DNA of 64,000 nucleotides from contig CAZEMI010000239.1 in assembly GCA_964513235.1 (NCBI GenBank), positions 3,991 through 67,990 of the forward strand, written 5' to 3'. The DNA comes from an uncultured Acidobacterium sp. (GTDB lineage: Bacteria > Acidobacteriota > Vicinamibacteria > Vicinamibacterales > UBA2999). A program made the position numbers and the translations under genes. Below are positions 39,657-52,453 of the stretch, in pieces; position 1 is the first letter of the stretch; every line of letters begins with the position of its first letter. The notes under the pieces were generated by a model. The model was not told the origin of the DNA and did no database searches. It saw only the letters and a program-made list of their open reading frames with translations.

Positions 39657-40067
39657 ATGTCTAGGTATCCCGCGGATTTCCTCCACGGCACGCTCGACAC
39701 CCTCATCCTCAAGACCCTCACCGGCGGTCCCATGCACGGCTACGCCATCGGCAAGTGGATCGAGGACGCCACCGATTCCACGATCGAGCTGGAAGAAGGG
39801 TCGCTCTATCCCGCGCTGTATCGGCTCGAAAAGCGCGGGCTGCTCGATGCCGAGTGGGGCACGTCCGAGCTCGGGCGGCGCGCCAAGTTTTATCGCCTGA
39901 CGCGCGCCGGCCGGCAGCAACTCGCCAGCCACGCCGCGGCCTGGGCGGAGTTCTCCGCGGCGGTCAATCGCGTGCTGTTGTCGGCCTTCGCTCGCGCGGG
40001 TTCTGGCGAGCTACGGCGAGATCTCGCCGTAGCGCCCTCCGGGCGCGGAGGCGGGCGAGGAGTGTAA
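39657..40067 (+). CDS. PadR-family regulator (acidobacterial ADOP-associated type)
   Basis: GTLDTLILKTL..GPMHGYAI, EEGSLYPALYRLEKRG, RRAKFYRLT; 3' end extended through a palindrome. Confidence 0.9.
   Translation: MSRYPADFLHGTLDTLILKTLTGGPMHGYAIGKWIEDATDSTIELEEGSLYPALYRLEKRGLLDAEWGTSELGRRAKFYRLTRAGRQQLASHAAAWAEFSAAVNRVLLSAFARAGSGELRRDLAVAPSGRGGGRGV
39984..40052. repeat. REP-like element with a perfect 24-bp central palindrome, inside the PadR 3' end
   Basis: gctacggcgagatctcgccgtagc (40010-40033) enclosed by gccttcgc / gcggaggc. Confidence 0.75.
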
Positions 40068-40069
40068 CG

Positions 40070-42727
40070 ATGGCTATTCGCAGGCGGTTGCGATCGCTCC
40101 TGTGGCGCGTGCCGATCGAGCAGGAAGTGCAGGAGGAGCTCGATCATCACATCGCGCTCAGAACGCAGGAGCTCGTCGACACAGGCGTCGATCCCGCCGA
40201 GGCGCGTGCGCAGGCACGGCGCCGGATCGAGAAGGCACGCCTCGAAGCCGAGCTCACGCGCCTGGGCCGCGAGCGCAACACCACCTGGGCGCGCCGTGAA
40301 GCGCTCGACGAGCTTCGCCAGGATCTCGCCTTCGCGCTGCGGCAGTGCCGCACCAAGCCGGGATTCACGATGGCGGCCGTGCTTACCCTGGCGCTTGGCC
40401 TTGGCGCCACCACCGCGATCTTCAGCGTGGTGCACGCCGTGGTGCTCACACCGTACGCGTACCCGGACCCCGATCGCGTAGTGCTCACGTTCTCGCTGCT
40501 GCGCGGCAACCGCGGCAGCTGGTCGGTGGGGAATTTCCACTACTTCGATCAGCGGTTGACGACCACGTCGCATTTCGCCGCCGCCGCGGGGACCAGCCTC
40601 AACCTCGCCGGCGCCGGCGACCCCGAGCGCGTGGTCGGCAGGCGCGTCACGCATGACTTCTTCCCACTCTTCGGCATCGCGCCGGCGCTTGGGCGCACCT
40701 TCACGGCCGACGAGGATCAACCGGGCCGCACCAACGTGGTGGTGCTCAGCCATCGGCTGTGGCAGCGGCGATTCAACGCCGATCCTAGCCTCCTCGGGCG
40801 CGCCATCCGGATCAATGGCGAGCAGTACGACGCGATCGGCGTGATGCCTCCGGATTTCGATCGGATCGGCGATGCCGCCGAGGCGTGGATTCCCGCCGGC
40901 TTCACGCCCGCGCAGCTCGCCATGTTCGACGAGTTCTACCTCGACGTGTACGCGCGGCACAGACCGGAATTCTCGCTCGCGCAGGTCAACGACGAGTTCG
41001 TGCGAGTCGGGCGGCAACTGTCGGTCGATCAGGCATTCATGAACGCCGAGCGCAGTGCCGGCGTGGAACGGCTGAGCACGTTCTATATCGGCGATTACCG
41101 GCTGCGCTTGTTGATCCTGCTCGGCGCGGTTGGCCTCGTGCTGCTCATCGCCTGCGGCAACGTCGCCAACCTCCAGCTCGCCCGGCTCGCGGCCCGCTCG
41201 CGCGAGCTCGCCATTCGCGCCGCCATCGGTGCCGGGCGCGGCCGCATCGTCCGGCAGGTGTTGACCGAGAGCCTCGTGCTGGCCGGCCTCGGCGGCGCGG
41301 CCGGTGTCGTGGTGGCTTATTGGGCCCTGCCGATGCTCGTCGCGATGGCGCCGGACGGCGTGCCGCGACTGACGACGGCACGCCTGAACGGCAGCGTGCT
41401 CGCGGCCGCCGGCCTCCTGGTGGTGCTGAGCGCGATCATCGTCGGGCTGCTCCCGGCGTGGCAGGCGACGCGGCGCCGGTTGTTGACCGACGACCTGGGC
41501 GACGGTAAAGGCGCGTTGAGCGGGACGCTCAAACCATGGATGCGCCAACTGTTGATCGGCGCGCAAGCGGCGATCGTGATGATCGTCCTGTCTGGTGCGG
41601 CGTTACTGGTACGCAGCGCCATCAATCTCCAACAGGAGCCCATGGGCTTCGACATCAACGGCGTGCTGAGCGCGCGGATCGCGTTGCCGGCGGCGCAATA
41701 CGGTCCGCCAGAGACCTCGCGCGCGGCCTACCGCCAGGTGCTCGAGCGCGTCGCGGCGTCACCAGGTGTCCGTTTCGCCGCGCTGGATTCACAGGCGCCG
41801 CTGGTGACCCGCGGCGGCTCGAACGGGCTGCTGCCGGAAGGACGACAGCAGGGCGGCGATCTCATCCAGTCCGACTCGCACTTCGTGACGCCCGACTACT
41901 TCAAGGTGTTGAACATCACGCTCACAGCGGGACGCACGTTCACGGACGCCGACATCCGCCAGGCGCCGCTGGTGATGGTGATCAACGAAACGCTCGCGCG
42001 CGCGGCCTACGGCGATGCCGATCCGATCGGCAAACGGATGATCTGCTGTGAAGGCTCGCCCGACGATCCGATGTGGAAGACCGTGATCGGCGTGGTCGGC
42101 GACGTCAAAGGCCGCGGGCCGGCGCAACCGCCGCGTCCGGAGTTCTACCTGCCGCTCATGCAGGTACCCGATCTGGCCTGGACGTGGTTCGGCCGCACGC
42201 TCACCATCCTCACGCGCGGCGACGATCCCGCGTCGATGACCACGGCGATTCGAGAGTCGGTGCGATCGCTCGACCGCAGCCTGCCCGTGTTCGCGATCCG
42301 CACGATGGACGAGGGCCTCGACCGAGTCATGGCGCAGGCGCGCTTCAACACGATGTTGATGACGCTGCTGGCCGCCACGGGCCTGCTGCTGGCGGCGCTG
42401 GGGATCTACAGCGTGATCGCATGGCTGGTGGTGCAGCGCACGCGCGAGATCGGCGTGCGCATGGCGCTGGGCGCCTCGACGCGTGACGTGATCAGGATGA
42501 TGAGCGTGCACGGGCTGAAACCGGTGATCGCCGGACTCGCGGTTGGCGTCGCCGGCGCGCTGGCGACGACGCGGTTGCTGCAGAACCAGTTGTTCGAAGT
42601 CGGCCCGCGCGATCCGATCACGCTGGTCGCCACGGCCGCGGTGCTGCTCGTCGTGGGCGGCGCCGCGGCGGCGATTCCGGCGTGGCGCGCCACCGCCATC
42701 GATCCGTCGGCGGCACTACGGGATTAA
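40070..42727 (+). CDS. ADOP-family duplicated ABC permease with N-terminal prefix domain
   Basis: EQEVQEELDHHIALR prefix; LRQDLAFALRQ; two FtsX halves; IDPSAALRD; start ATG 40070 after GAGGAG. Confidence 0.9.
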   Translation: MAIRRRLRSLLWRVPIEQEVQEELDHHIALRTQELVDTGVDPAEARAQARRRIEKARLEAELTRLGRERNTTWARREALDELRQDLAFALRQCRTKPGFTMAAVLTLALGLGATTAIFSVVHAVVLTPYAYPDPDRVVLTFSLLRGNRGSWSVGNFHYFDQRLTTTSHFAAAAGTSLNLAGAGDPERVVGRRVTHDFFPLFGIAPALGRTFTADEDQPGRTNVVVLSHRLWQRRFNADPSLLGRAIRINGEQYDAIGVMPPDFDRIGDAAEAWIPAGFTPAQLAMFDEFYLDVYARHRPEFSLAQVNDEFVRVGRQLSVDQAFMNAERSAGVERLSTFYIGDYRLRLLILLGAVGLVLLIACGNVANLQLARLAARSRELAIRAAIGAGRGRIVRQVLTESLVLAGLGGAAGVVVAYWALPMLVAMAPDGVPRLTTARLNGSVLAAAGLLVVLSAIIVGLLPAWQATRRRLLTDDLGDGKGALSGTLKPWMRQLLIGAQAAIVMIVLSGAALLVRSAINLQQEPMGFDINGVLSARIALPAAQYGPPETSRAAYRQVLERVAASPGVRFAALDSQAPLVTRGGSNGLLPEGRQQGGDLIQSDSHFVTPDYFKVLNITLTAGRTFTDADIRQAPLVMVINETLARAAYGDADPIGKRMICCEGSPDDPMWKTVIGVVGDVKGRGPAQPPRPEFYLPLMQVPDLAWTWFGRTLTILTRGDDPASMTTAIRESVRSLDRSLPVFAIRTMDEGLDRVMAQARFNTMLMTLLAATGLLLAALGIYSVIAWLVVQRTREIGVRMALGASTRDVIRMMSVHGLKPVIAGLAVGVAGALATTRLLQNQLFEVGPRDPITLVATAAVLLVVGGAAAAIPAWRATAIDPSAALRD

Positions 42728-43981
42728 CACCGGGCGCGCGGCCGATTCCCACTGGGCGTCCCAGCGTTGCGGCGGATTCTGCCGCAGCCACGCGCGGGAT
42801 TTCGCCAGCGGACCGTCAGGCGCGATTGATCGGGTGGCGACGCTGACGAGGAGACTCGCGAGGTCGCCTGGATCGCGGAACGTGACGCCTTCGTGTCCCG
42901 TCTCCATCACTTCACCGAGCACCTGCGAGTAGTCGTAAGTGGCGGCCGGCACGCCCGCGCCGCGCAGATCGGCCAGCTTCATCGGCAAGTCGAGTCCCGA
43001 CGAGGACTGGTGCAGGCAGAGGCCGAGGTCGGCCATGCCGACGAGCGTCGGATAATCGGCTGGCTCCAGCCACGCCGTCTTCACGGCAATCGCCGTGAAG
43101 TTGCGGCGAGCCGCGCGCTGCTCGAACGTGTCACGCAGTGGGCCGCGGCCGGTGAGAAAGACCGCGAGGTCCGCCCCGCCCGTCGCTTCGCCGGGGTTCG
43201 CGCCGGCGGCGGCGGCCGATCGCGCACGCGTCAGCGTCCGCTCCGCGCGCTCAAGCGCTTCGAGCAGCAGATCGAAATCCTCGTCCGGCGTCCAGCTGGT
43301 GGGGCACACCACGATGGGCGGACGTGTGGCGCCGAGGTGATACTCGGCGGCGAGCCTGTTCCACAGCGCCGCCGCCACCTCCGGCGATGGCGGCGCGAAC
43401 GACGCCGCGGGCCGGTCGTACACGACCACCGGCTTCACACGATATTCGCGCGCCAGCCAGTCCCCCATCGCCTGCGACACCGCCAAGTGTCCGTCGGCGC
43501 GCTTCGCCCACCGCCGCTCGCTTCGCGCCAAAGACTTCACCGCGCGATGGCCCTCACCCACCGTCACCGCGGCAATGGTGTGCGAGAGGTTGTGCCAGTC
43601 GATCACGACGCGCGCGCCGCGCAGGCGCGCGGCGAGCCAGGCCATCGAGAGCGCCGGCACCGCCGGCGGGTTTTGCACGAGGATCACCTCGGGCTTGGGA
43701 ATGCGCATCAGCGTCGAGAAGAGGCGCGCCGCTTGCCCGGCGGCGCGCAGTGCCGATCCCCAGACGAACCGGCGGACGCCGCCTGTCGCGCGGCCGGCGA
43801 ACGCCCGGTCGCGCAGGCGATGACAATGAATCCGTGCGTTCCCCGACACGGCCGGCACCGTCGGCGCCCCTTCGAGCCCGATGAGATCCACCTCGCTGCC
43901 CGCGGCGGCGAGCGACACCGCGTGGTACTGCATGCGCGGGCTGCGGCCCAGATCTCCGATTACGATAACGGCGGTTCTCAT
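42716..43981 (-). CDS. ALG1-like beta-1,4-mannosyltransferase (GT33-like), no N-terminal TM anchor
   Basis: GDLGRSPRMQYHAVSLA, VQNPP, VIDWHN, VYDRP, TSWTPDEDFDLLL, TGRGPLR, WLEPADYP..ADLGLCLHQSSSGLDLPMK. All match eukaryotic ALG1 signature blocks as recalled, in the same order. Confidence 0.85.
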   Translation of the reverse strand: MRTAVIVIGDLGRSPRMQYHAVSLAAAGSEVDLIGLEGAPTVPAVSGNARIHCHRLRDRAFAGRATGGVRRFVWGSALRAAGQAARLFSTLMRIPKPEVILVQNPPAVPALSMAWLAARLRGARVVIDWHNLSHTIAAVTVGEGHRAVKSLARSERRWAKRADGHLAVSQAMGDWLAREYRVKPVVVYDRPAASFAPPSPEVAAALWNRLAAEYHLGATRPPIVVCPTSWTPDEDFDLLLEALERAERTLTRARSAAAAGANPGEATGGADLAVFLTGRGPLRDTFEQRAARRNFTAIAVKTAWLEPADYPTLVGMADLGLCLHQSSSGLDLPMKLADLRGAGVPAATYDYSQVLGEVMETGHEGVTFRDPGDLASLLVSVATRSIAPDGPLAKSRAWLRQNPPQRWDAQWESAARPVLIP

Positions 43982-44970
43982 TGAGCTTGTACCTGCTACT
44001 CGGCGTTAGCGGTGCCGCGCTGGCCCTGTTCCTGACCCCGCTGATTGGACGGGGTTCGACCGTGCTTGGACTGGTAGACGCCCCGGGGGGCAGGAAGGTT
44101 CATGCGCAATCGGTGCCTCGCCTGGGCGGCGTGGCGGTCGTGCTGGCCGCCGCGCTCGCGCTGGCGATCGTACCCGCATTGCTGCCGGGGTCCCGCGATC
44201 CCGAGATCTGGGTGGCGATGAGGCCCTTTGTGGTCGGCGGCCTCCTCATCTTCCTCGCCGGCCTCGTCGATGATATCCGCGGGCTTGGACCGGCGCCGAA
44301 GCTGCTCGTCGAGGTTCTCGCGGCCGCGGTCATGATCGCCTCGGGATTGTTGATCGAACGCGTCACGATTCTCGGCAGCACCTGGACGCTCGGATGGATC
44401 GCCTACCCGGTGACGGCGGCCTGGCTGGTCGGCGTCACCAACGCGTTCAACCTGATCGATGGCGTGGACGGGCTGGCGCCGGGCATTGCGGCGGTCGCCG
44501 GCGCGGCCTGCGGCGCCCTCCTCATCGTCCGCGGCCACACGGCCGAAGCCATGCTGCTGGCGGCGTTTGTCGGCGCGATGCTCGGGTTCCTGGTCTACAA
44601 CTTCGAGCCCGCGTCGATCTTCCTCGGCGACAGCGGCAGCCTGGTCGCCGGTTTCCTGCTCGCGGCGACGGCCATCGCCGGCTGGCAGAAGGGTGCGACG
44701 GCGCTCGCGTCGGCGGTACCCTTGCTGATCTTCGCGCTGCCGCTCGCCGACGCCGCGTCGGCACTGATGCGCCGCGCGCTGGCGCGGCCGACCCATGGCC
44801 GATCGCTCGGCGCCGTGATGCGGCAGGTGGTTGAACCGGATCGCGAGCACATCCATCATCGGCTGCTCGGTCTCGGGTGGTCGGTCCGCCGCACCGTGCT
44901 CATCCTCTACGGCGTGACCGCCGTGCTGTCGATCCTGGCGCTGGCGACCGCGCAAGTAGACGCCAGATGA
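43981..44970 (+). CDS. WecA/TagO-type polyprenyl-phosphate GlcNAc-1-phosphate transferase (PNPT family, includes ALG7/MraY)
   Basis: DAPGGRKVH..VPRLGG, GLVDD, NAFNLIDGVDGLA, IFLGDSGS, PDREHIHHRL; TTG start at 43981 or 43987. Confidence 0.88.
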   Translation: MSLYLLLGVSGAALALFLTPLIGRGSTVLGLVDAPGGRKVHAQSVPRLGGVAVVLAAALALAIVPALLPGSRDPEIWVAMRPFVVGGLLIFLAGLVDDIRGLGPAPKLLVEVLAAAVMIASGLLIERVTILGSTWTLGWIAYPVTAAWLVGVTNAFNLIDGVDGLAPGIAAVAGAACGALLIVRGHTAEAMLLAAFVGAMLGFLVYNFEPASIFLGDSGSLVAGFLLAATAIAGWQKGATALASAVPLLIFALPLADAASALMRRALARPTHGRSLGAVMRQVVEPDREHIHHRLLGLGWSVRRTVLILYGVTAVLSILALATAQVDAR

Positions 44971-46145
44971 AGGCCACAAATGGCACGGAACCGCATTCCA
45001 GCAAGCGCGTGCTGCTGGTGCAGCCGTCGATGCAGCCGCCGGGCGGCGGCCACGGCGTGGCCGCATGGGTGCTGCAGGCGCTGGCGCCGGAACATCGCGT
45101 CACCGTGCTGTCGTGGCGGCCGGTCGAGATCGATCCGATCAACCGCTTCTTCGGCACGCACCTGAAGCCCGCCGATTTCGACACGCTCGTGGTGCCGTGG
45201 CACTGGCGCGTCATCCCCGATCATCTGCCGGTGCCGGCGGCGCTGGTCAGGCTGTCGCTGATGATGCGCTACACGCGCCGGGTCAGCCGCGGGTTCGAGG
45301 TGGTGTTCGGCATGTTCAACGAGACCGATTACGGCCGCAAGGGTATTCAATACGTTCACTATCCGACCTATCTGCGCCCGCGTCCGGCGGTGGACCTGCG
45401 GTGGTATCACGCCGCGCGGTGGCCGCTGCGGCTTTACTATGCCGCCGCCGATCGTCTCGCGCACTTCTCACACGATCGCCTGAAACAGAACCTGACGCTG
45501 GTGAACTCCGACTGGACGGGCCGGCACGTCCAGGGGTTTCTCGGCGTTCCGACGCGGACGTTGTACCCGCCGGTTGCCGATCCGGCGCCGGGCGCGCCGT
45601 GGGCGGAGCGCCGCCACGGCTTTCTCGCCATCGGCCGCCTCTCTCCGGAAAAGGAGTTCGAGCGCGTGATGACGATCCTGGCGCGGGTCCGCGACCGGGT
45701 CCCGGCCGTCACGCTGACGATCATCGGCACGTGGGACCACCAGGCGCGCCGCTATCGCGATCGGCTCTTCGATCGGGCGCGGTCGCTGGGACCGTGGATT
45801 ACATTCCGGCAGAACATCAGCCGCGACGAGATCCGCGCCCTGATGGCCACGCATCGCTATGGCATCCATGGCATGCGCGAGGAACATTTCGGGATGGCGC
45901 CCGCGGAGCTCGCGCGGGCCGGCTGCATCGTGTGGGTGCCGCGCGGCGGCGGGCAGATGGAAGTCGTCGGCGGTGAGCCCGCGTTGATGTACGACTCGGA
46001 GGATGACGCGGTCGAGAAGATCGCGAGAACGCTCGCGTCGCCGGCCGAACAGGATCGGCTGCGTCAGGTCCTCACCGCGAGCGAGCGGTTTTCGACCGCC
46101 AACTTCGTCAGGCAGGTCCGCGACATCGTCGAGGAGTTCAGGTGA
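44967..46145 (+). CDS. GT4 glycosyltransferase with ALG11-like motifs
   Basis: PPGGGHGVAAW, YVHYPT, VNSDWT, LYPP, IGRLSPEK, GIHGMREEHFGMAPAE; ATG 44967 overlaps the wecA stop (ATGA). Confidence 0.8.
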   Translation: MKATNGTEPHSSKRVLLVQPSMQPPGGGHGVAAWVLQALAPEHRVTVLSWRPVEIDPINRFFGTHLKPADFDTLVVPWHWRVIPDHLPVPAALVRLSLMMRYTRRVSRGFEVVFGMFNETDYGRKGIQYVHYPTYLRPRPAVDLRWYHAARWPLRLYYAAADRLAHFSHDRLKQNLTLVNSDWTGRHVQGFLGVPTRTLYPPVADPAPGAPWAERRHGFLAIGRLSPEKEFERVMTILARVRDRVPAVTLTIIGTWDHQARRYRDRLFDRARSLGPWITFRQNISRDEIRALMATHRYGIHGMREEHFGMAPAELARAGCIVWVPRGGGQMEVVGGEPALMYDSEDDAVEKIARTLASPAEQDRLRQVLTASERFSTANFVRQVRDIVEEFR

Positions 46146-47913
46146 GCTGTCGGAATCCGGGATCGCGCATCAGCTCGTCGTAGGTGCCGAGGCCGGCAAT
46201 GCCGCCGTCGCGCAAGTAGATCAACTGATCGCAGCCCTTCACCGTCGACAACCGGTGTGCGATCGCAATTACGGTGCGCAAGCCGTGAACGTTGGCGATG
46301 GCCTCGGTCACTTCGCGTTCGGTCTGGTTGTCGAGCGCCGCGGTGGCTTCATCGAAGACCAGCACCTGCGGATCGTGATAGAGCGCGCGCGCAATCGCCA
46401 CGCGTTGCCGTTGCCCACCCGACAGGCGAATGCCGTTTTCGCCAATCACCGTCTCCAACCTGTTGGGCAGCGCGGCGACGACCTCGTCGAGCCTGGCCTG
46501 CGACACCGCGTTGGCCAGCCGCTGTTCATCGATCGCGCTGTCGGGAATGCCGAACGCGATATTGCGGCTCAGCGAATCGTCGAGCAGATACACGTCCTGC
46601 GGGACGTAGCCAATCTGGCGCTGCCACGCCCGCTCCCGGCCGTCGAGCGGCTGGCCGTCGATCAGCACGCGGCCGCTCGTCGGCGCGAGCAGGCCCAGCA
46701 GCAGGTCGACCAGGGTGCTCTTGCCGGCGCCGGTGGGGCCGACGATGCCGATCGATTGCCCGCGCGCAATCGTGAACGAGATGTGATCGAGCGCGGGGGC
46801 CGGCGCGTCCTCGTAGCGAAACGACACATCCTCGCACGCCAGGGTGGCCTGCAGCATCGGCGGCACGGGTTCGTAGGTCCGCGTCGCGGGCGGCTTCAGC
46901 CGCCGCATGTCCTCGTCCATGCCGCGGATCCACGGGTGCGCCTCGCGCATGTAGCCGACGTTCAGCATGATCCGGTTGGCCGACGGCACGACGCGGAATC
47001 CCGTATACGCGAACAGCGCCAGCACCGACACGATGTAGGCGCTCGGCACGGCCGCGCGCATCACCAGAAAGACGACGATCAACATGCTGAGGATGAGCGT
47101 GGCTTCGACGCCCAGCCGCGCCACCGCCGCCGCCGTCGCGCGCCGCTGCTTGGTGGCGCCGAGCTCGCGCTTCACGTCGCGGAAACGCTCCTCGAAGAAT
47201 GGCTGCCGGCCCGTGACTGTCACGTCCTTGATGGCGCCGAGGCTCTGCTGCAGCAGATGGAGCTGCTGCTGATAGAGCGTGCGCTCGGTGGCGCCGATGC
47301 GCTCCCACGAACGGCGCGTCAGGACGATCGGCACGAGCACCACGCCAAGCACCACCGCCACGGTGACGACCGTGACCAGCGGCGCCGACACGATCAGGAC
47401 GATGGCGAGGGCGGTGATGGTGGCGGCTTCGGCAAGGATGTTCACCGCCGATCCGGCGCCGAGCTCGAACGCGATATCAGAGGTCCGCGACACCGGTTCG
47501 ATCAACGACGCCGAGCGCCGCTTGACGTGGAATAAATAGTCGGCGGCGAGATACCGGGCGAGCAGCCGTTCGCCGGCGATCGCCGAGGACCCGTAGACGG
47601 TCCTCATCCGCACCCATTCGGCCCACGACAGGAACGCCGCACGCAGGACGTAGAACGCGGCGACCGCGAGCGCGAGCAAGGCCACCATCGCGCGGGGCTG
47701 GTATCGCGACGGCATCAGGGTCCACAAGTCCGACACCACCGGCGCGGTCCGCACCAGTTCGGGATCGACGACCAGCCGCAACAACCCGAACACCGCCAAC
47801 GCGCCCGCGGCTTCGATCAGCGCGGCCATCCCGGCGATCGGCACGAGCAAGAGCCACCGCCAGCGCCATCGCGCCGGCAGCCATCCGATCACGGATCGTA
47901 GGTCGCGCAACAA
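46138..47913 (-). CDS. PglK/WlaB-like ABC exporter (TMD + NBD), candidate lipid-linked glycan flippase
   Basis: RYLAADYLFHVKRRSASL (PglK-type coupling region), GPTGAGKST, LSGGQRQR, VFDEATAALD, IAHRL. Confidence 0.85.
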   Translation of the reverse strand: MLRDLRSVIGWLPARWRWRWLLLVPIAGMAALIEAAGALAVFGLLRLVVDPELVRTAPVVSDLWTLMPSRYQPRAMVALLALAVAAFYVLRAAFLSWAEWVRMRTVYGSSAIAGERLLARYLAADYLFHVKRRSASLIEPVSRTSDIAFELGAGSAVNILAEAATITALAIVLIVSAPLVTVVTVAVVLGVVLVPIVLTRRSWERIGATERTLYQQQLHLLQQSLGAIKDVTVTGRQPFFEERFRDVKRELGATKQRRATAAAVARLGVEATLILSMLIVVFLVMRAAVPSAYIVSVLALFAYTGFRVVPSANRIMLNVGYMREAHPWIRGMDEDMRRLKPPATRTYEPVPPMLQATLACEDVSFRYEDAPAPALDHISFTIARGQSIGIVGPTGAGKSTLVDLLLGLLAPTSGRVLIDGQPLDGRERAWQRQIGYVPQDVYLLDDSLSRNIAFGIPDSAIDEQRLANAVSQARLDEVVAALPNRLETVIGENGIRLSGGQRQRVAIARALYHDPQVLVFDEATAALDNQTEREVTEAIANVHGLRTVIAIAHRLSTVKGCDQLIYLRDGGIAGLGTYDELMRDPGFRQLT

Positions 47914-48033
47914 GGGGAACCTGCTTACTATTTACGCTTCATGTAAAAAGGAACCTGCTTCCCTTTTACGTGGTTCGTAAGAGCAATGCAGATTCTGCCA
48001 CTTTGTGGCGAAATTGTTCAGCTACACTGCCGT

Positions 48034-49368
48034 ATGCAAGACCTCACGACGGGTTCCCTCACAGGTCATCTCCTCAAAACGACCAGCTTCATGCTGGTCA
48101 GCATGATCTTCCAGACGTTGTACGTGCTGGTGGATCTGTTCTGGGTGGGGCGCCTGGGAACCGACGCGATCGCCGCCGTCGGCCTGAGCGCCAACCTGTC
48201 GTTCATCGTCATTGCCATCACGCAAGTGCTGGCGGTTGGGGCGACGACGCTCGTGTCGCATGCGGCGGGCACGAAGGATCAGGAGCGGGCGATCTTCCTG
48301 TTCAACCAGTCGCAGGTGCTGTCGATGGTCGTGGGGATCCTGTTTCTCGGAATCGCGATGGCGCTGCGGCATCAGTACGCGGCCGGCCAGAGCGCCACCG
48401 AGGGCATGCGCATCGCCACCGAGGAGTACTTACTCTGGTTCATTCCGGCGATGGCGCTCCAATTCGCGATGGTGGCCATGGGCGCGGCGCTGCGCGGCAC
48501 CGGCAACTTCAAGCCGGGTATGTATGTGCAGACCGGCACCGTGATCATCAACATGGTGCTCGCGCCGTTCCTGATTTTCGGCTGGGGACCGTTTCCGCGG
48601 ATGGGCGTGAGCGGCGCGGCGGTGGCAACGCTGCTCGCGATCGTCGTCGGCGTGGTCTGGATCTCGTTCTACTTCATCGATGCGAAAGCGTACTTGCGCT
48701 TCCATGCCGGCAGCTGGCGCCCGCAGCTGCGCGTGTGGTGGCAGATGCTGAGGATCGGGCTGCCGGCCGGCGCCGAGTTCGCCTTGATGGGCATCTACAT
48801 GGCCGTGGTCTACGCGATCACCCGGCCGTTCGGGGCCGCTGCCCAGGGCGGATTCACGATTGGCCTGCGCATCGTGCAGTCGGCGTTTCTGCCGGTGGTG
48901 GCACTGGGCTTCGCGGTGGCCCCGGTGGCCGGCCAGAACTTCGCGGCGCGCAAGGGCGAGCGCGTCCGCGCCGCGTTCAAGGCCGCCGCGGGCATGGCGG
49001 CGGGCGCGATGCTGGTGGCCGGGATCGTGATTTTCTTCGCCGCGGTTCCGTTGATGCGCATCTTCACCAGCGATCCCGACGTCATCTCGGTGGGCGTGGA
49101 ATACCTGCGTATCGTGGTGCTGAATTTCGTGGCCTCGGGCATCACGTTCGTGTCGTCGAGCATGTTCCAGGCGATGGGCAACACCATGCCGTCGCTGGTC
49201 ACGTCGGCGCTGCGGCTCTTCGTGAGCATTATTCCCGCGATATTGCTGTCGCGAGTGGCCGGGTTCCACCTGACGTGGATCTGGTACATCAGCGCGGTGG
49301 CGGTGTTCCTGCAGATGAGCGTGAACCTCTTCCTGCTGCAGCGCGAATTCCGACTGAAGCTGGCGTAG
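48034..49368 (+). CDS. MATE-family efflux transporter
   Basis: DLTTGS, LYVLVDLFWVGRLGTDAIAAVG, LRGTGN..PG, GVSGAAVAT, QAMGNT; start re-called at ATG 48034. Confidence 0.9.
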   Translation: MQDLTTGSLTGHLLKTTSFMLVSMIFQTLYVLVDLFWVGRLGTDAIAAVGLSANLSFIVIAITQVLAVGATTLVSHAAGTKDQERAIFLFNQSQVLSMVVGILFLGIAMALRHQYAAGQSATEGMRIATEEYLLWFIPAMALQFAMVAMGAALRGTGNFKPGMYVQTGTVIINMVLAPFLIFGWGPFPRMGVSGAAVATLLAIVVGVVWISFYFIDAKAYLRFHAGSWRPQLRVWWQMLRIGLPAGAEFALMGIYMAVVYAITRPFGAAAQGGFTIGLRIVQSAFLPVVALGFAVAPVAGQNFAARKGERVRAAFKAAAGMAAGAMLVAGIVIFFAAVPLMRIFTSDPDVISVGVEYLRIVVLNFVASGITFVSSSMFQAMGNTMPSLVTSALRLFVSIIPAILLSRVAGFHLTWIWYISAVAVFLQMSVNLFLLQREFRLKLA

Positions 49369-49424: not shown

Positions 49425-50981
49425 ATGAAGCTCGCCGTCCCGAGAGAATGCCGCCCCGGCGAACGCCGCGTGGCGGTGACCCCTGAAAACGTTTCGCGAT
49501 TGATCAAGATGGGCTTCGCGGTTGCCGTCGAGCACGACGCCGGCGCCGCGGCCTCCTTTGGCAACGACGACTACCTGGCGGCGGGGGCGGAGGTCATCAC
49601 CGGGCCGCGGGAGATCTGGCAGGCCGGCGACATCGTGCTGAAGGTGCAGCCGCCGGCGATGCACCCGGTGCTCAACGTCCACGAAGCGGATTTGATCCGC
49701 GAGCGCGGCACGTTGATTTCGTTCCTCTACCCCGGCAAGAACAAGGAGATCGTCGAGCGGCTGGCGGCGCGCCAGGCCACGGCGATCGCGGTGGATCAGA
49801 TTCCGCGCATCACCCGCGCGCAGAAGATGGACGCGCTGTCGTCGATGGCCAACATCGCCGGCTATCGCGCGGTGGTCGAGGCCGCCAGTTTCTACGGGCG
49901 TTTTTTCACCGGCCAGATGACGGCGGCCGGAAAGGTGCCGGCGGCGAAGGTGCTGGTGATCGGCGCCGGCGTGGCCGGGCTGGCCGCCATCGGCGCGGCG
50001 CGCGGCATGGGCGCCATCGTGCGCGCGTTCGACACGCGCCCGACGGTCAAGGAACAAGTCAAGAGCATGGGCGCGGAGTTCATCGAGCTCAACGTTCATG
50101 AAGACGGTGAGGGCGCCGGCGGCTACGCGAAGGAGATGAGCCCGGCGTTCATCAAGGCGGAGATGGACATGTTCGCCGCGCAGGCGAAGGATGTCGACAT
50201 CATCATCACCACGGCGCTGATTCCCAACCGCCCGGCACCAATTCTGATCACCGAAGAGATGGTCAAGTCGATGAAGAAGGGATCGGTGATCGTCGACCTG
50301 GCCGCGGAGAACGGCGGCAACTGCGCGTTGACCGAACCCGGCCACGTCGTCGAACGCCACGGCGTGCACATTCTCGGCTACACCGATCTGCCCAGCCGCC
50401 TGGCGCCGACGGCGAGCCTGCTGTTTGGCAACAACCTGACGCACCTGCTGGCCGATCTCGGCGGCGCGAGCCATTTCCACCTCGACCTGGCGGATGAAGT
50501 GGTCCGGGGCGCGCTGGTGCTGCGCGAAGGCGAGCTGCTCTGGCCGCCGCCGGCGAGGCCGCCGCTGGTGTTGCCGCCGGACCCGAAAGTGGTTGCGGTC
50601 AAGACACCGGCCGCCCTGGCGCCCCCGCCAAAGAAGACCAGCATCGCGGGTCCGATCTTTGCAGTCGTCGCGGCCGCGGCGTTGGTGGGTCTCGGTCTCG
50701 TCGCGCCGCCTGCATTCCTCTCGCACCTGACGGTGTTCGCGCTGGCGTGCATCGTGGGGTGGCAGGTGGTGTGGAACGTCACACCCGCTTTGCACACGCC
50801 GCTGATGAGCGTGACCAACGCGATCAGCGGCATCATCGTCATCGGCGGCATGCTGCAGGTGAGCGGCCCGCCCTCCTCCCCGATCGTCATGCTTGGCGCC
50901 GCCGCGATTCTGCTGGCGACGATCAACATCGCCGGCGGCTTCCTCGTCACGCAGCGCATGCTGCGGATGTTCAGGCGCTAG
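49425..50981 (+). CDS. pntA: NAD(P) transhydrogenase alpha subunit (fused alpha)
   Basis: VPRE...[55 protein letters not shown]. Confidence 0.96.
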
Positions 50982-51049: not shown

Positions 51050-52453
51050 GTGCCTGAGACGCTCGTCACCGTCGCGTATCTGGCCGCCGGATTACTTTTT
51101 ATTTTCAGCCTCGGCGGGCTGTCGGCGCAGGAGTCGGCGCCCCGCGGCAACCTGTTCGGCATGGCCGGCATGCTGATCGCCGTGCTGGTCACGGCCGTTG
51201 GTCCGCGTGTCGACAGCTACATGGTGATGACGGTCGCGCTGGTGATCGGCGGCGCGATCGGCGCCATGCTGGCGGCACGCGTCGGGATGACCTCGATGCC
51301 GCAGCTGGTGGCGATCCTCCACAGCTTCGTCGGCGCGGCGGCGGTGCTCGTCGGCATTGCCACGACGCTCGACCACAGCCAGCTGTTTACCGGCATCGAA
51401 CGGCGCATCCACGACACCGAGATCTTCGTCGGCATCTTCGTCGGCGCCATTACGTTCACCGGGTCGGTGGTGGCCTTCGGCAAGCTGCAGGGCGTGATCG
51501 GCAGCAAGCCGCTCCTGTTGCCGGGCCGCCACGTGATGAACCTGGTGATGCTACTGGCGTGCCTCTATCTCGGCGACGTCTTCGTCACCTACGGCGACTA
51601 CTTCCCCGTGCTCTGGCCGTTACTGGTCGTGACGGCGATCGCCTCGCTGATGGGCATCCACCTGGTGATGGCCATCGGCGGCGCCGACATGCCGGTGGTG
51701 GTCTCGATGTTGAACAGCTACTCGGGGTGGGCCGCGGCGGCGGCGGGCTTCATGCTCGAGAACGACCTGCTGATCATTACCGGCGCGCTGGTCGGTTCGA
51801 GCGGCGCGATCCTCAGCTACATCATGTGCGCCGCGATGAACCGATCGTTCCTGAGCGTGATTCTCGGTGGCTTCGGCGCCGAGGAAGGTGCGGCTCCGGC
51901 GGGCGGATCGGCGCAACCGGCCGGCGAAGTCAAGTCGGTGACGGCGGAAGAGACCGCGGATCTCCTGCGCGATGCCAAGAGCGTGATCGTGGTGCCGGGC
52001 TATGGCATGGCGGTGGCGCAGGCGCAGTACCCGCTGTATGAAGTCACCAAGCTGCTGCGCGACAAGGGCGCGAACGTGCGGTTCGCGATCCATCCCGTGG
52101 CCGGCCGCCTCCCCGGTCACATGAACGTGCTGCTGGCGGAAGCCAAGGTGCCGTACGACATCGTGCTGGAGATGGAAGAGATCAACCAGGAGTTTCCCAC
52201 CACGGACCTGGTGCTCGTGATCGGCGCCAACGACATCGTCAATCCGGGCGCCCTCGACGATCCGTCGAGCCCGATCTACGGCATGCCGATCCTCGAAGTG
52301 TGGAAGGCGAAGACCGCCATCGTGATGAAGCGCGGCATGGCCAGCGGCTATGCCGGGGTCGACAACCCGCTGTTCTACAAGGACAACACGCGGATGCTGT
52401 TCGGCGACGCGAAGAAGATGATCGACGCGGTACTGACCGCGCTGAACAGCTAG
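51050..52453 (+). CDS. pntB: NAD(P) transhydrogenase beta subunit
   Basis: [64 protein letters not shown]. Confidence 0.96.

Follow-up and report, generated by a model that had tools for sequence, protein, structure and literature searches.

Does a bacterial genome encode a counterpart of ALG11, the eukaryotic enzyme that mannosylates lipid-linked Man3GlcNAc2 (Man, mannose; GlcNAc, N-acetylglucosamine)? This question is raised by a gene, here called P0006, in a contig of an uncultured soil acidobacterium of the Vicinamibacterales (CAZEMI010000239.1, assembly GCA_964513235.1). The stretch of 64,000 nucleotides that was analysed is referred to as the window. The gene of interest lies in it as follows:

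44967..46145, + strand: ALG11-type glycosyltransferase gene (P0006) of glycosyltransferase family 4 (GT4; GT-B, retaining type), open frame of 392 aa

An earlier note, made by a model from the letters alone, had read P0006 as a GT4 enzyme with an ALG11-type motif series and had proposed it as an alpha-mannosyltransferase acting after an ALG1-like enzyme. What has now been established for P0006 is its fold, its motifs, its place in the phylogeny and the conservation of its gene neighbourhood. Within GT4, P0006 joins the ALG11-type branch as a new bacterial member and is not ALG11 itself. It belongs to a large prokaryotic family which in the trees shares one clade with eukaryotic ALG11 and relatives from the Thermoproteota.

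Phylogenetic position of the P0006 family

Searched exhaustively, 1.84 billion cluster representatives yielded 3443 relatives of P0006 at E ≤ 1e-3, of which 612 reach E ≤ 1e-30. Of the best 150, almost all are full-length proteins, about 380-400 aa long and 34-50% identical to P0006. The ALG11 and ALG2 comparators were source-named records from the protein collection, and human and yeast sequences served as bait only.

In a quick tree of 82 sequences, the family (support 100) was sister to ALG11 (98). After the addition of 22 Thermoproteota relatives (97 rows), ALG11, the archaeal clade and the family formed a three-way clade (Shimodaira-Hasegawa-like approximate likelihood-ratio test, SH-aLRT, 94) whose internal order the tree left open. 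A careful tree was then computed in IQ-TREE with LG+C20 and posterior mean site frequencies (60 rows, 397 columns). One split, with an ultrafast bootstrap of 100 and an SH-aLRT of 98, places ALG11, the Thermoproteota relatives and the family on one side. On the other side are ALG2, bacterial ALG2-like proteins, 12 GT4 paralogues from the same genome and WaaG, WaaB and WcaL of Escherichia coli. The bacterial family is monophyletic (100/100) and is not nested in eukaryotic ALG11, which forms a separate clade (100/100). The joining of the family to the archaea rather than to ALG11 is weak (89/34). Approximately unbiased (AU) tests rejected a grouping of the family with ALG2 (p 0.0145) and with generic bacterial GT4s (p 0.0146). 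The earlier note had called for a GT4 phylogeny against ALG11, ALG2 and archaeal relatives, and its expectation was borne out on this point. The opposite outcome that it had named, clustering with WaaG (RfaG)-type bacterial GT4s away from ALG11, was not seen for the comparators obtained, which did not include WbdA or, in the trees, PimA and PimB, and among which PimB' was compared by profile score only.

Direct comparison of P0006 with mammalian ALG11 by BLASTP gave 77 bits (E 1e-19, 25% identity over 320 residues), and with yeast Alg11 62 bits. When the 5.96-Mb genome was searched with ALG11 by tblastn, the P0006 gene came first (E 3e-15), followed by a runner-up at E 4e-4. A hidden Markov model (HMM) of 12 ALG11 proteins scored the P0006 open reading frame (ORF) at 49.6 bits (E 9e-14 in the 7668 ORFs of the genome) and the runner-up at 24.5 bits. 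An HMM of 12 ALG2 proteins matched 18 other GT4 ORFs of the genome and not P0006 at E ≤ 1e-3. By this non-match and its separate tree position, P0006 is not ALG2-like. Aligned profile to profile with ALG11 (hhalign), the family matches over 372 columns that run from the glycine loop as far as the C-terminus (score 204, E 4e-27). The HMM of the family itself gave the following scores:

Thermoproteota GT4 relatives (fetched by the ALG11 profile): 100-187 bits, full length
Eukaryotic ALG11: 83-107 bits
Bacterial ALG2-like proteins: 68-91 bits
Eukaryotic ALG2: 26-72 bits
Paralogues in the same genome: at most 48 bits
Best PDB sequence, 2f9f: 43.6 bits
PimB': 22 bits
E. coli WaaG: 14.9 bits
WcaL: 11.7 bits

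Some members of the family have unusual architectures. Seven of them (P0252, P0292, P0265, P0290, P0316, P0366 and P0396) are 590-795 aa long with the GT4 part in one half only. P0252 and P0292 match in two stretches, and in all seven the GT4 part may be fused to another domain or to a further copy of GT4. Tandem duplicates of the family gene occur at L083:6120-9212, L075:7953-10854, L072:5780-9146 and contig C13:14195-16440 of genome G219. Fusions or read-through are suggested by the great length of some of these frames, which reaches 1140 aa in G219. Furthermore, the member in a Bathyarchaeia metagenome-assembled genome (MAG; L080:4897-6057) is nested inside the bacterial family and not in the Thermoproteota clade; it could reflect horizontal transfer or a binning error.

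Motifs, fold and enzyme class

All six motif strings quoted in the earlier note were found exactly in the P0006 translation. The ALG11 blocks that it had listed are likewise correct in real, source-named ALG11 records (AGGGGERVLW, YVHYPT, VNSSWT, VYPP, VGQFRPEK and HTMWNEHFGIGVVE). The blocks of P0006 are located as follows:

45042..45068, + strand: N-terminal glycine loop GGGHGVAAW, residues 26-34; aligns with the AGGGGERVLW loop of ALG11 (hhalign, MAFFT)
45351..45368, + strand: YVHYPT block, residues 129-134; YVHYPT in ALG11, Y[VM]H[YF]P in the archaeal relatives
45501..45518, + strand: VNSDWT block, residues 179-184; VNSSWT in ALG11
45561..45572, + strand: LYPP block, residues 199-202; YPP is common to the family, most archaeal relatives shown and ALG11
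45630..45653, + strand: IGRLSPEK block, residues 222-229; PEK is common to ALG11 (FRPEK) and the archaeal relatives, ALG2 has ERKK
45867..45908, + strand: HGMREEHFGMAPAE block, residues 301-314, with the EX7E motif (E306...E314) of the family alignment

The consensus of 127 members retains GGGxxVAAW, GIQYVHYP, TLVNSxWT, VLYPPV, GRxxPEKR and RYGIHxMxxEHFGIAVAEM. In an alignment of 40 family sequences, G26 and G27 of the glycine loop, N180 and S181 of the VNSDWT block, K229 of the IGRLSPEK block and E306, F308, G309 and E314 are invariant, and R224 is nearly so. The R/K pair of the IGRLSPEK block is of the kind typical for donor-phosphate binding in GT4 enzymes.

Several of these blocks set the family apart from ALG2. 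The counterpart of YVHYPT reads YCHFPD in ALG2, and generic GT4s are without the block. At the YPP position, ALG2 has YPS, YPC or YPG. An H-x-M just ahead of EX7E is common to P0006, ALG11 and the archaeal relatives, whereas ALG2 has YTP. Taken as a set, YPP, PEK and H-x-M occur in the family, most archaeal relatives and ALG11, and not in ALG2, the paralogues of the same genome or WaaG.

P0006 is a GT-B enzyme of CAZy family GT4, as seen from its fold, its Glycos_transf_1 domain and its EX7E motif. Enzymes of this family retain the anomeric configuration and carry EX7E. P0006 displays the ordered ALG11 motif series, including EX7E in the C-terminal Glycos_transf_1 domain (Pfam, 52.6 bits, residues 216-366); Pfam and NCBIfam return generic GT1/GT4 matches only. 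AlphaFold2, run with 40 family sequences, gave a confident model (pLDDT 91.4, pTM 0.88) with two Rossmann-like halves. Foldseek against the PDB found GT4 enzymes at TM 0.6-0.7, none of them specially close: BshA, a mycobacterial methylmannose-polysaccharide mannosyltransferase, HepE, WaaG, MshA, PimA and PimB'. Sequence searches of the PDB with P0006 alone and with the family profile turned up no ALG11 or ALG2 entry, and the top match was 2f9f, the C-terminal domain of Archaeoglobus fulgidus 'wbaZ-1' (43.6 bits). P0006 is a soluble or peripheral, cytoplasmic protein. No N-terminal membrane anchor was found in the sequence and the model, to which no dedicated transmembrane predictor was applied: the N-terminal stretch MKATNGTEPHSSKRVLLVQPS has a hydrophilic character, and residue 14 already begins the first Rossmann strand of the model.

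The gene and its immediate neighbours

The frame of P0006 is intact, with no internal stops on translation; the longest ORF extends back to a GTG at 44877. A reading as pseudogene or artefact was ruled out by the intact frame, the full-length conservation down to 34% identity and the confident model. The gene is surrounded by the following features, which with P0006 make up a four-gene module:

42716..43981, - strand: ALG1-like glycosyltransferase, 421 aa, divergent from the WecA-like gene (translation and BLASTP lead)
43981..44970, + strand: polyprenyl-phosphate N-acetylhexosamine (HexNAc)-1-phosphate transferase of the WecA/MraY family (ALG7-type step), 329 aa; Pfam Glycos_transf_4, 137 bits
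44967..44970, + strand: ATGA start/stop overlap of P0006 and the upstream WecA-like gene, read off the sequence
46138..47913, - strand: MsbA/PglK-like ATP-binding cassette (ABC) exporter with fused permease and ATPase, convergent with P0006; ABC_tran, 120 bits, and ABC_membrane

The ATG of P0006 (44967-44969) and the TGA of the WecA-like gene (44968-44970) share 4 nt. This is the overlap behind the translational coupling that the earlier note had claimed; it is present, and close junctions recur in related loci. The WecA-like protein scores 129 bits against NCBIfam ECA_wecA, under the cut-off of 326. Human ALG1, a query used as a lead only, matched the ALG1-like protein at 238 bits in BLASTP (33% identity end to end). 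The stop region of the ABC exporter overlaps the P0006 stop by 8 nt, and its NCBIfam scores for MsbA (270 bits) and PglK (250 bits) are each under their own cut-offs.

Farther out, a duplicated permease of the ADOP family (39755-42727, +; NCBIfam TIGR03434, 843 bits) overlaps the 3' end of the ALG1-like gene with its own 3' end by 12 nt. A MatE-family transporter (47986-49368, +; Pfam, 157 bits) is divergent from the ABC exporter. The two genes 3' of it (49425-50981 and 51050-52453) presumably are the transhydrogenase genes pntA and pntB, names that come from reading the translations only.

Gene neighbourhood in related loci

A scan of one genome per prokaryotic species yielded at least 406 loci encoding the family, 80 of which were kept and scored for partners within 8 kb. 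These 80 loci span Acidobacteriota, Binatia, Methylomirabilota, deltaproteobacteria and Myxococcales, Nitrospira, Gemmatimonadaceae, KSB1, Ignavibacteriales, Spirochaetia and the Bathyarchaeia MAG mentioned above. Locus L040 comes from a Luteitalea MAG. Gene calls in high-GC loci were guided by GC content at third codon positions, as clustering of all ORFs had collapsed from shadow ORFs. Some genes are still missed by these calls; for instance, the GT28 gene of locus L043 had to be recovered by tblastn.

The family gene has an ALG1-like gene within 8 kb in 54 of the 80 loci, an ABC exporter in 48 and a WecA-like gene in 47. Wherever a Vicinamibacterales-type locus extends far enough to tell, it has the order ALG1-like (-), WecA-like (+), GT4 (+), ABC (-). 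By a crude nearest-start script, the WecA-like and GT4 genes overlap by 4 nt or 1 nt, or are 1-2 nt apart, in 19 of 33 loci of the same order; most of the remaining junctions have ATGA or GTGA at the upstream stop. Co-occurrence with the ALG1-like gene, another check named in the earlier note, also holds between genomes. Across a phylum sample of 201 genomes, the family is present in four and the ALG1-like gene in three, all of them among those four. The Fisher p is about 3e-6 (calculated by hand), the three genomes being related and not three independent events.

Loci of more distant lineages are richer in pathway genes. A MurG/Alg13-14-type GT28 gene (Pfam PF03033, PF04101) occurs in 15 of them. 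In 13 loci of other lineages, the cluster contains an STT3/AglB-type oligosaccharyltransferase (OST) with a WWDYG motif (PF02516 with PF22627 or PF21436). Moreover, a second GT4 that groups with eukaryotic ALG2 (99/98) was found in seven loci and an FkbM methyltransferase in six. A complete cluster is that of a Vicinamibacteria MAG (CAWHTD010000012.1, L043:1440-12275), where all eight genes lie in about 11 kb: ALG1-like, GT28, WecA-like, STT3/AglB OST, FkbM, ALG11-type GT4, ABC exporter and ALG2-like GT4. Similar sets are found in L069, L060, L054 and L063. The ALG2-like gene shares its locus with the family in L043, L060, L069 and L083, the first three of which also hold the ALG1-like gene. 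An OST is missing within 8 kb of the four-gene module of the Vicinamibacterales, nor did the module yield Wzx, Wzy, Wzz or Wzm/Wzt genes.

Two further observations concern single clusters. At L076:6920-7900 (Gemmatimonadaceae), L070 and L079, a GDP-L-fucose synthase (Fcl; 47-57% identical to that of E. coli) is encoded in the cluster or next to it, a hint that some versions of the glycan contain fucose. The ALG1-like call at L082:5587-6807 (-) is given as 741 aa, whereas 415-480 aa is usual; either a fusion or an artefact of gene calling may explain this length.

Pathway genes elsewhere in the genome

The P0006 genome carries the reduced, four-gene form of the module. No ALG2-like orthologue was found in it, in the two module-bearing relatives of the same taxonomic family (G219 and G289) or in G288. 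It has a single GT28 gene, probably murG; a second one was looked for and not found. With neither an ALG2-like gene nor a second GT28, the acceptor of P0006 must therefore differ from Man3GlcNAc2-PP-lipid (PP, diphosphate). The gene set for this acceptor, namely an ALG2-type enzyme and a transferase for the second GlcNAc, is present in related clusters (e.g., L043, L060 and L069).

A C-terminal fragment of an AglB-type protein (435 aa, C239:122397-123701, -) lies on the same contig outside the window, about 72 kb downstream of the module, and is cut by the contig end. It has the motif MNWWDQGYW and an AglB_core-like match of 64 bits. Clear STT3 matches (61-105 bits) were obtained in the module-bearing relatives G219 and G289, whereas those in fourteen relatives without the module are marginal and short, with at most 29 bits. 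In G289, the OST is on the contig of the module, about 22 kb away. As for the donor, a ManB-like gene and Gmd were found in the P0006 genome and imply a pool of GDP-mannose.

Proposed role and alternative explanations

The donor sugar, linkage, acceptor and glycan fate of P0006 are predictions drawn from sequence, trees and gene context. P0006 probably adds alpha-mannose to a lipid-linked glycan after the ALG1-like step. According to this proposal, the WecA-like enzyme would prime polyprenyl phosphate with HexNAc-1-phosphate, and the ALG1-like enzyme would add a beta-mannose. P0006, made in a fixed ratio with the WecA-like enzyme via the ATGA overlap, would then add one or more alpha-linked mannoses from GDP-mannose to the glycan on the lipid diphosphate; its acceptor may be the beta-mannose product itself. 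The product would be flipped by the adjacent ABC exporter, and a transferase of the STT3/AglB type may pass the glycan to protein. An alpha-1,2 linkage can be put forward only tentatively. The role suggested in the earlier note is supported by phylogeny and co-occurrence, with alpha-mannosyl transfer itself predicted. Its caveat on linkage was right and applies more strongly than stated, as archaeal GT4s outscore ALG11 on the family HMM and no ALG2-like gene is present here.

Several points weigh against an ALG11-type role. The identity of P0006 to ALG11 is no more than 25%, and hhalign separates ALG11 (204) from ALG2 (182) just mildly; for this reason, the ranking by HMM within the genome and the trees were used. 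The Pfam domain ALG11_N (PF15924) was not matched by P0006 in hmmscan at E ≤ 10. A genome-wide search with it gave P0006 8.4 bits (E 8.9, cut-off 29.8) over the VNSDWT stretch only, and just 3 of 127 family representatives touch it weakly (best E 7e-4). In the trees, the AU p values are moderate (0.015 for either alternative), the clade unites long stems (0.96 and 1.22 changes per site), those of ALG11 and of the family both being long, and the eukaryotic sample consists of yeasts and vertebrates only. The genome is without the ALG2-like gene and the second GT28, hence without the canonical ALG11 acceptor, and a CpsB-type ManC was searched for in it and not found. Activity is putative for every member of the bacterial family and of the archaeal sister clade. 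P0006 should thus not be filed as ALG11, because the ALG11_N match and the anchor are absent, its clade is separate and the canonical acceptor is missing.

P0006 could also be a GT4 of the ALG11 clade that transfers another sugar or makes another linkage (e.g., glucose, galactose or HexNAc), with a glycan that is only loosely ALG-like, as in the archaeal Agl pathways. This is rather unlikely. It would agree with the higher family-HMM scores of the uncharacterised Thermoproteota GT4s, the weak joining of the family to archaea, the missing acceptor and the GDP-fucose synthase or FkbM methyltransferase of some related clusters; moreover, donor specificity of GT4 enzymes is not readable from sequence. 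However, loci with the full set hold exactly the glycosyltransferases of a Man5GlcNAc2-type glycan (GT28, ALG1-like, ALG2-like and the P0006 family), and the partner families ALG1 and ALG2 are proven mannosyltransferases in bacteria.

The lipid-linked oligosaccharide made by the module might also not be passed to protein. It could instead be a free glycolipid or donate its glycan to some other polymer of the envelope, and the distant STT3-like gene would then have no part in the process. The position of the OST-like fragment, far downstream and cut by the contig end, and the lack of an OST within 8 kb of the Vicinamibacterales module would fit such a fate. Nevertheless, we consider it unlikely: among the relatives tested, clear STT3 matches are confined to those bearing the module, the OST of G289 is on the module contig, and 13 loci of other lineages have an OST inside the cluster.

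The idea that P0006 is an ordinary GT4 of a WecA-initiated exopolysaccharide, O-antigen or capsule pathway, its ALG11-like motifs reflecting general GT4 conservation, is very improbable. In its favour, the automated source annotations give generic names only ('glycosyltransferase involved in cell wall biosynthesis' or plain 'glycosyltransferase'), Pfam recognises generic GT1/GT4 domains only, and ABC-dependent O-antigen pathways likewise combine an ABC exporter with WecA. Against it, the 100/98 split and the AU test separate the family from the own-genome paralogues, WaaG, WaaB and WcaL. With the family HMM, WaaG scores 15 bits and ALG11 83-107, the Wzx, Wzy, Wzz and Wzm/Wzt genes looked for are missing from the module, and the family gene is linked to STT3/AglB transferases in 13 loci.

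Implications of a bacterial ALG11-type family

The P0006 family might be the bacterial counterpart of ALG11 that completes a bacterial pathway of ALG7, GT28 (ALG13/14), ALG1, ALG2, ALG11, an ABC flippase and STT3/AglB. In that case, a lipid-linked glycan similar to Man5GlcNAc2 would be made by some Vicinamibacteria, Methylomirabilota, Binatia and deltaproteobacteria, which may N-glycosylate proteins with it. This scenario is possible but less likely than not. If true, one prokaryotic cluster would unite the full trio of cytosolic mannosyltransferases known from the eukaryotic pathway, a possible source for eukaryogenesis, and the P0006 genome would carry a reduced version of the pathway without ALG2.

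With a large bacterial family in the ALG11 clade, linked to ALG1-like, ALG2-like, GT28 and STT3/AglB genes, two questions become directly testable: whether high-mannose-type lipid-linked glycans are built by bacteria, and where ALG11 originated. For chemo-enzymatic glycan synthesis, as well as for a first structure from the ALG11 clade, the family provides ALG11-type enzymes that are soluble and have no anchor.

Comparison with known systems

No description of bacterial ALG11-type enzymes was found in the literature searched. The closest characterised reference is eukaryotic ALG11, the GDP-Man:Man3GlcNAc2-PP-dolichol alpha-1,2-mannosyltransferase of CAZy GT4. P0006 shares with it the ordered series of glycine loop, YxHYP, NSxWT, YPP, PEK and HxM-x3-EHFG-x4-E, and the P0006 family can be aligned with it end to end by profile and falls on the same side of the 100/98 split. 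Its gene also lies beside ALG7-type and ALG1-type genes, the pathway partners of ALG11 in eukaryotes. In contrast to ALG11, P0006 (25% identical) is about 100 residues shorter, has no ALG11_N match and no N-terminal anchor, and belongs to a separate, monophyletic prokaryotic clade. With no ALG2 in the genome, its acceptor differs, and its lipid carrier is presumably undecaprenyl instead of dolichyl.

GT4s of the Thermoproteota ('proteoarchaeal') were described as sister to ALG11 and called uncharacterised, and an archaeal origin of ALG11 was proposed (Lombard 2016, PMC4973528). They have the top family-HMM scores outside the family (100-187 bits) and resemble P0006 in length (370-400 aa), lack of an anchor and motif signatures. 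The P0006 family nonetheless forms a distinct clade (100/100), and the trees do not settle the order among family, archaea and ALG11 (89/34).

Bacterial homologues of ALG1 and ALG2 were shown to be active, with beta-1,4 and alpha-1,3/1,6 mannosyltransferase activity, and a bacterial ancestry was argued (Xu et al. 2025, bioRxiv 10.1101/2025.10.15.682550). These homologues came from Binatia, Methylomirabilota, Deltaproteobacteria/Polyangia, Gammaproteobacteria and related taxa; ALG11 and gene neighbourhoods are outside the treatment of that study. The P0006 family occurs in the same bacterial lineages, and some of its loci also hold ALG1-like and ALG2-like genes, but P0006 differs from bacterial ALG2 in not being ALG2-like by either the ALG2 HMM or the AU test.

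The pgl system of Campylobacter (PglC/A/J/H/I, PglK, PglB) offers a parallel for the process as a whole. There, too, cytoplasmic GT4s extend a polyprenyl-PP oligosaccharide, which is flipped by an ABC transporter and used by a transferase of the STT3 family. Unlike pgl, the module has an initiator of the WecA/MraY type and not PglC, and its glycosyltransferases are ALG-type and not Pgl-type. Furthermore, the OST of module-type loci carries the AglB core domain, and the sugars of the module are presumably mannose and GlcNAc rather than N,N'-diacetylbacillosamine (diNAcBac) and N-acetylgalactosamine (GalNAc).

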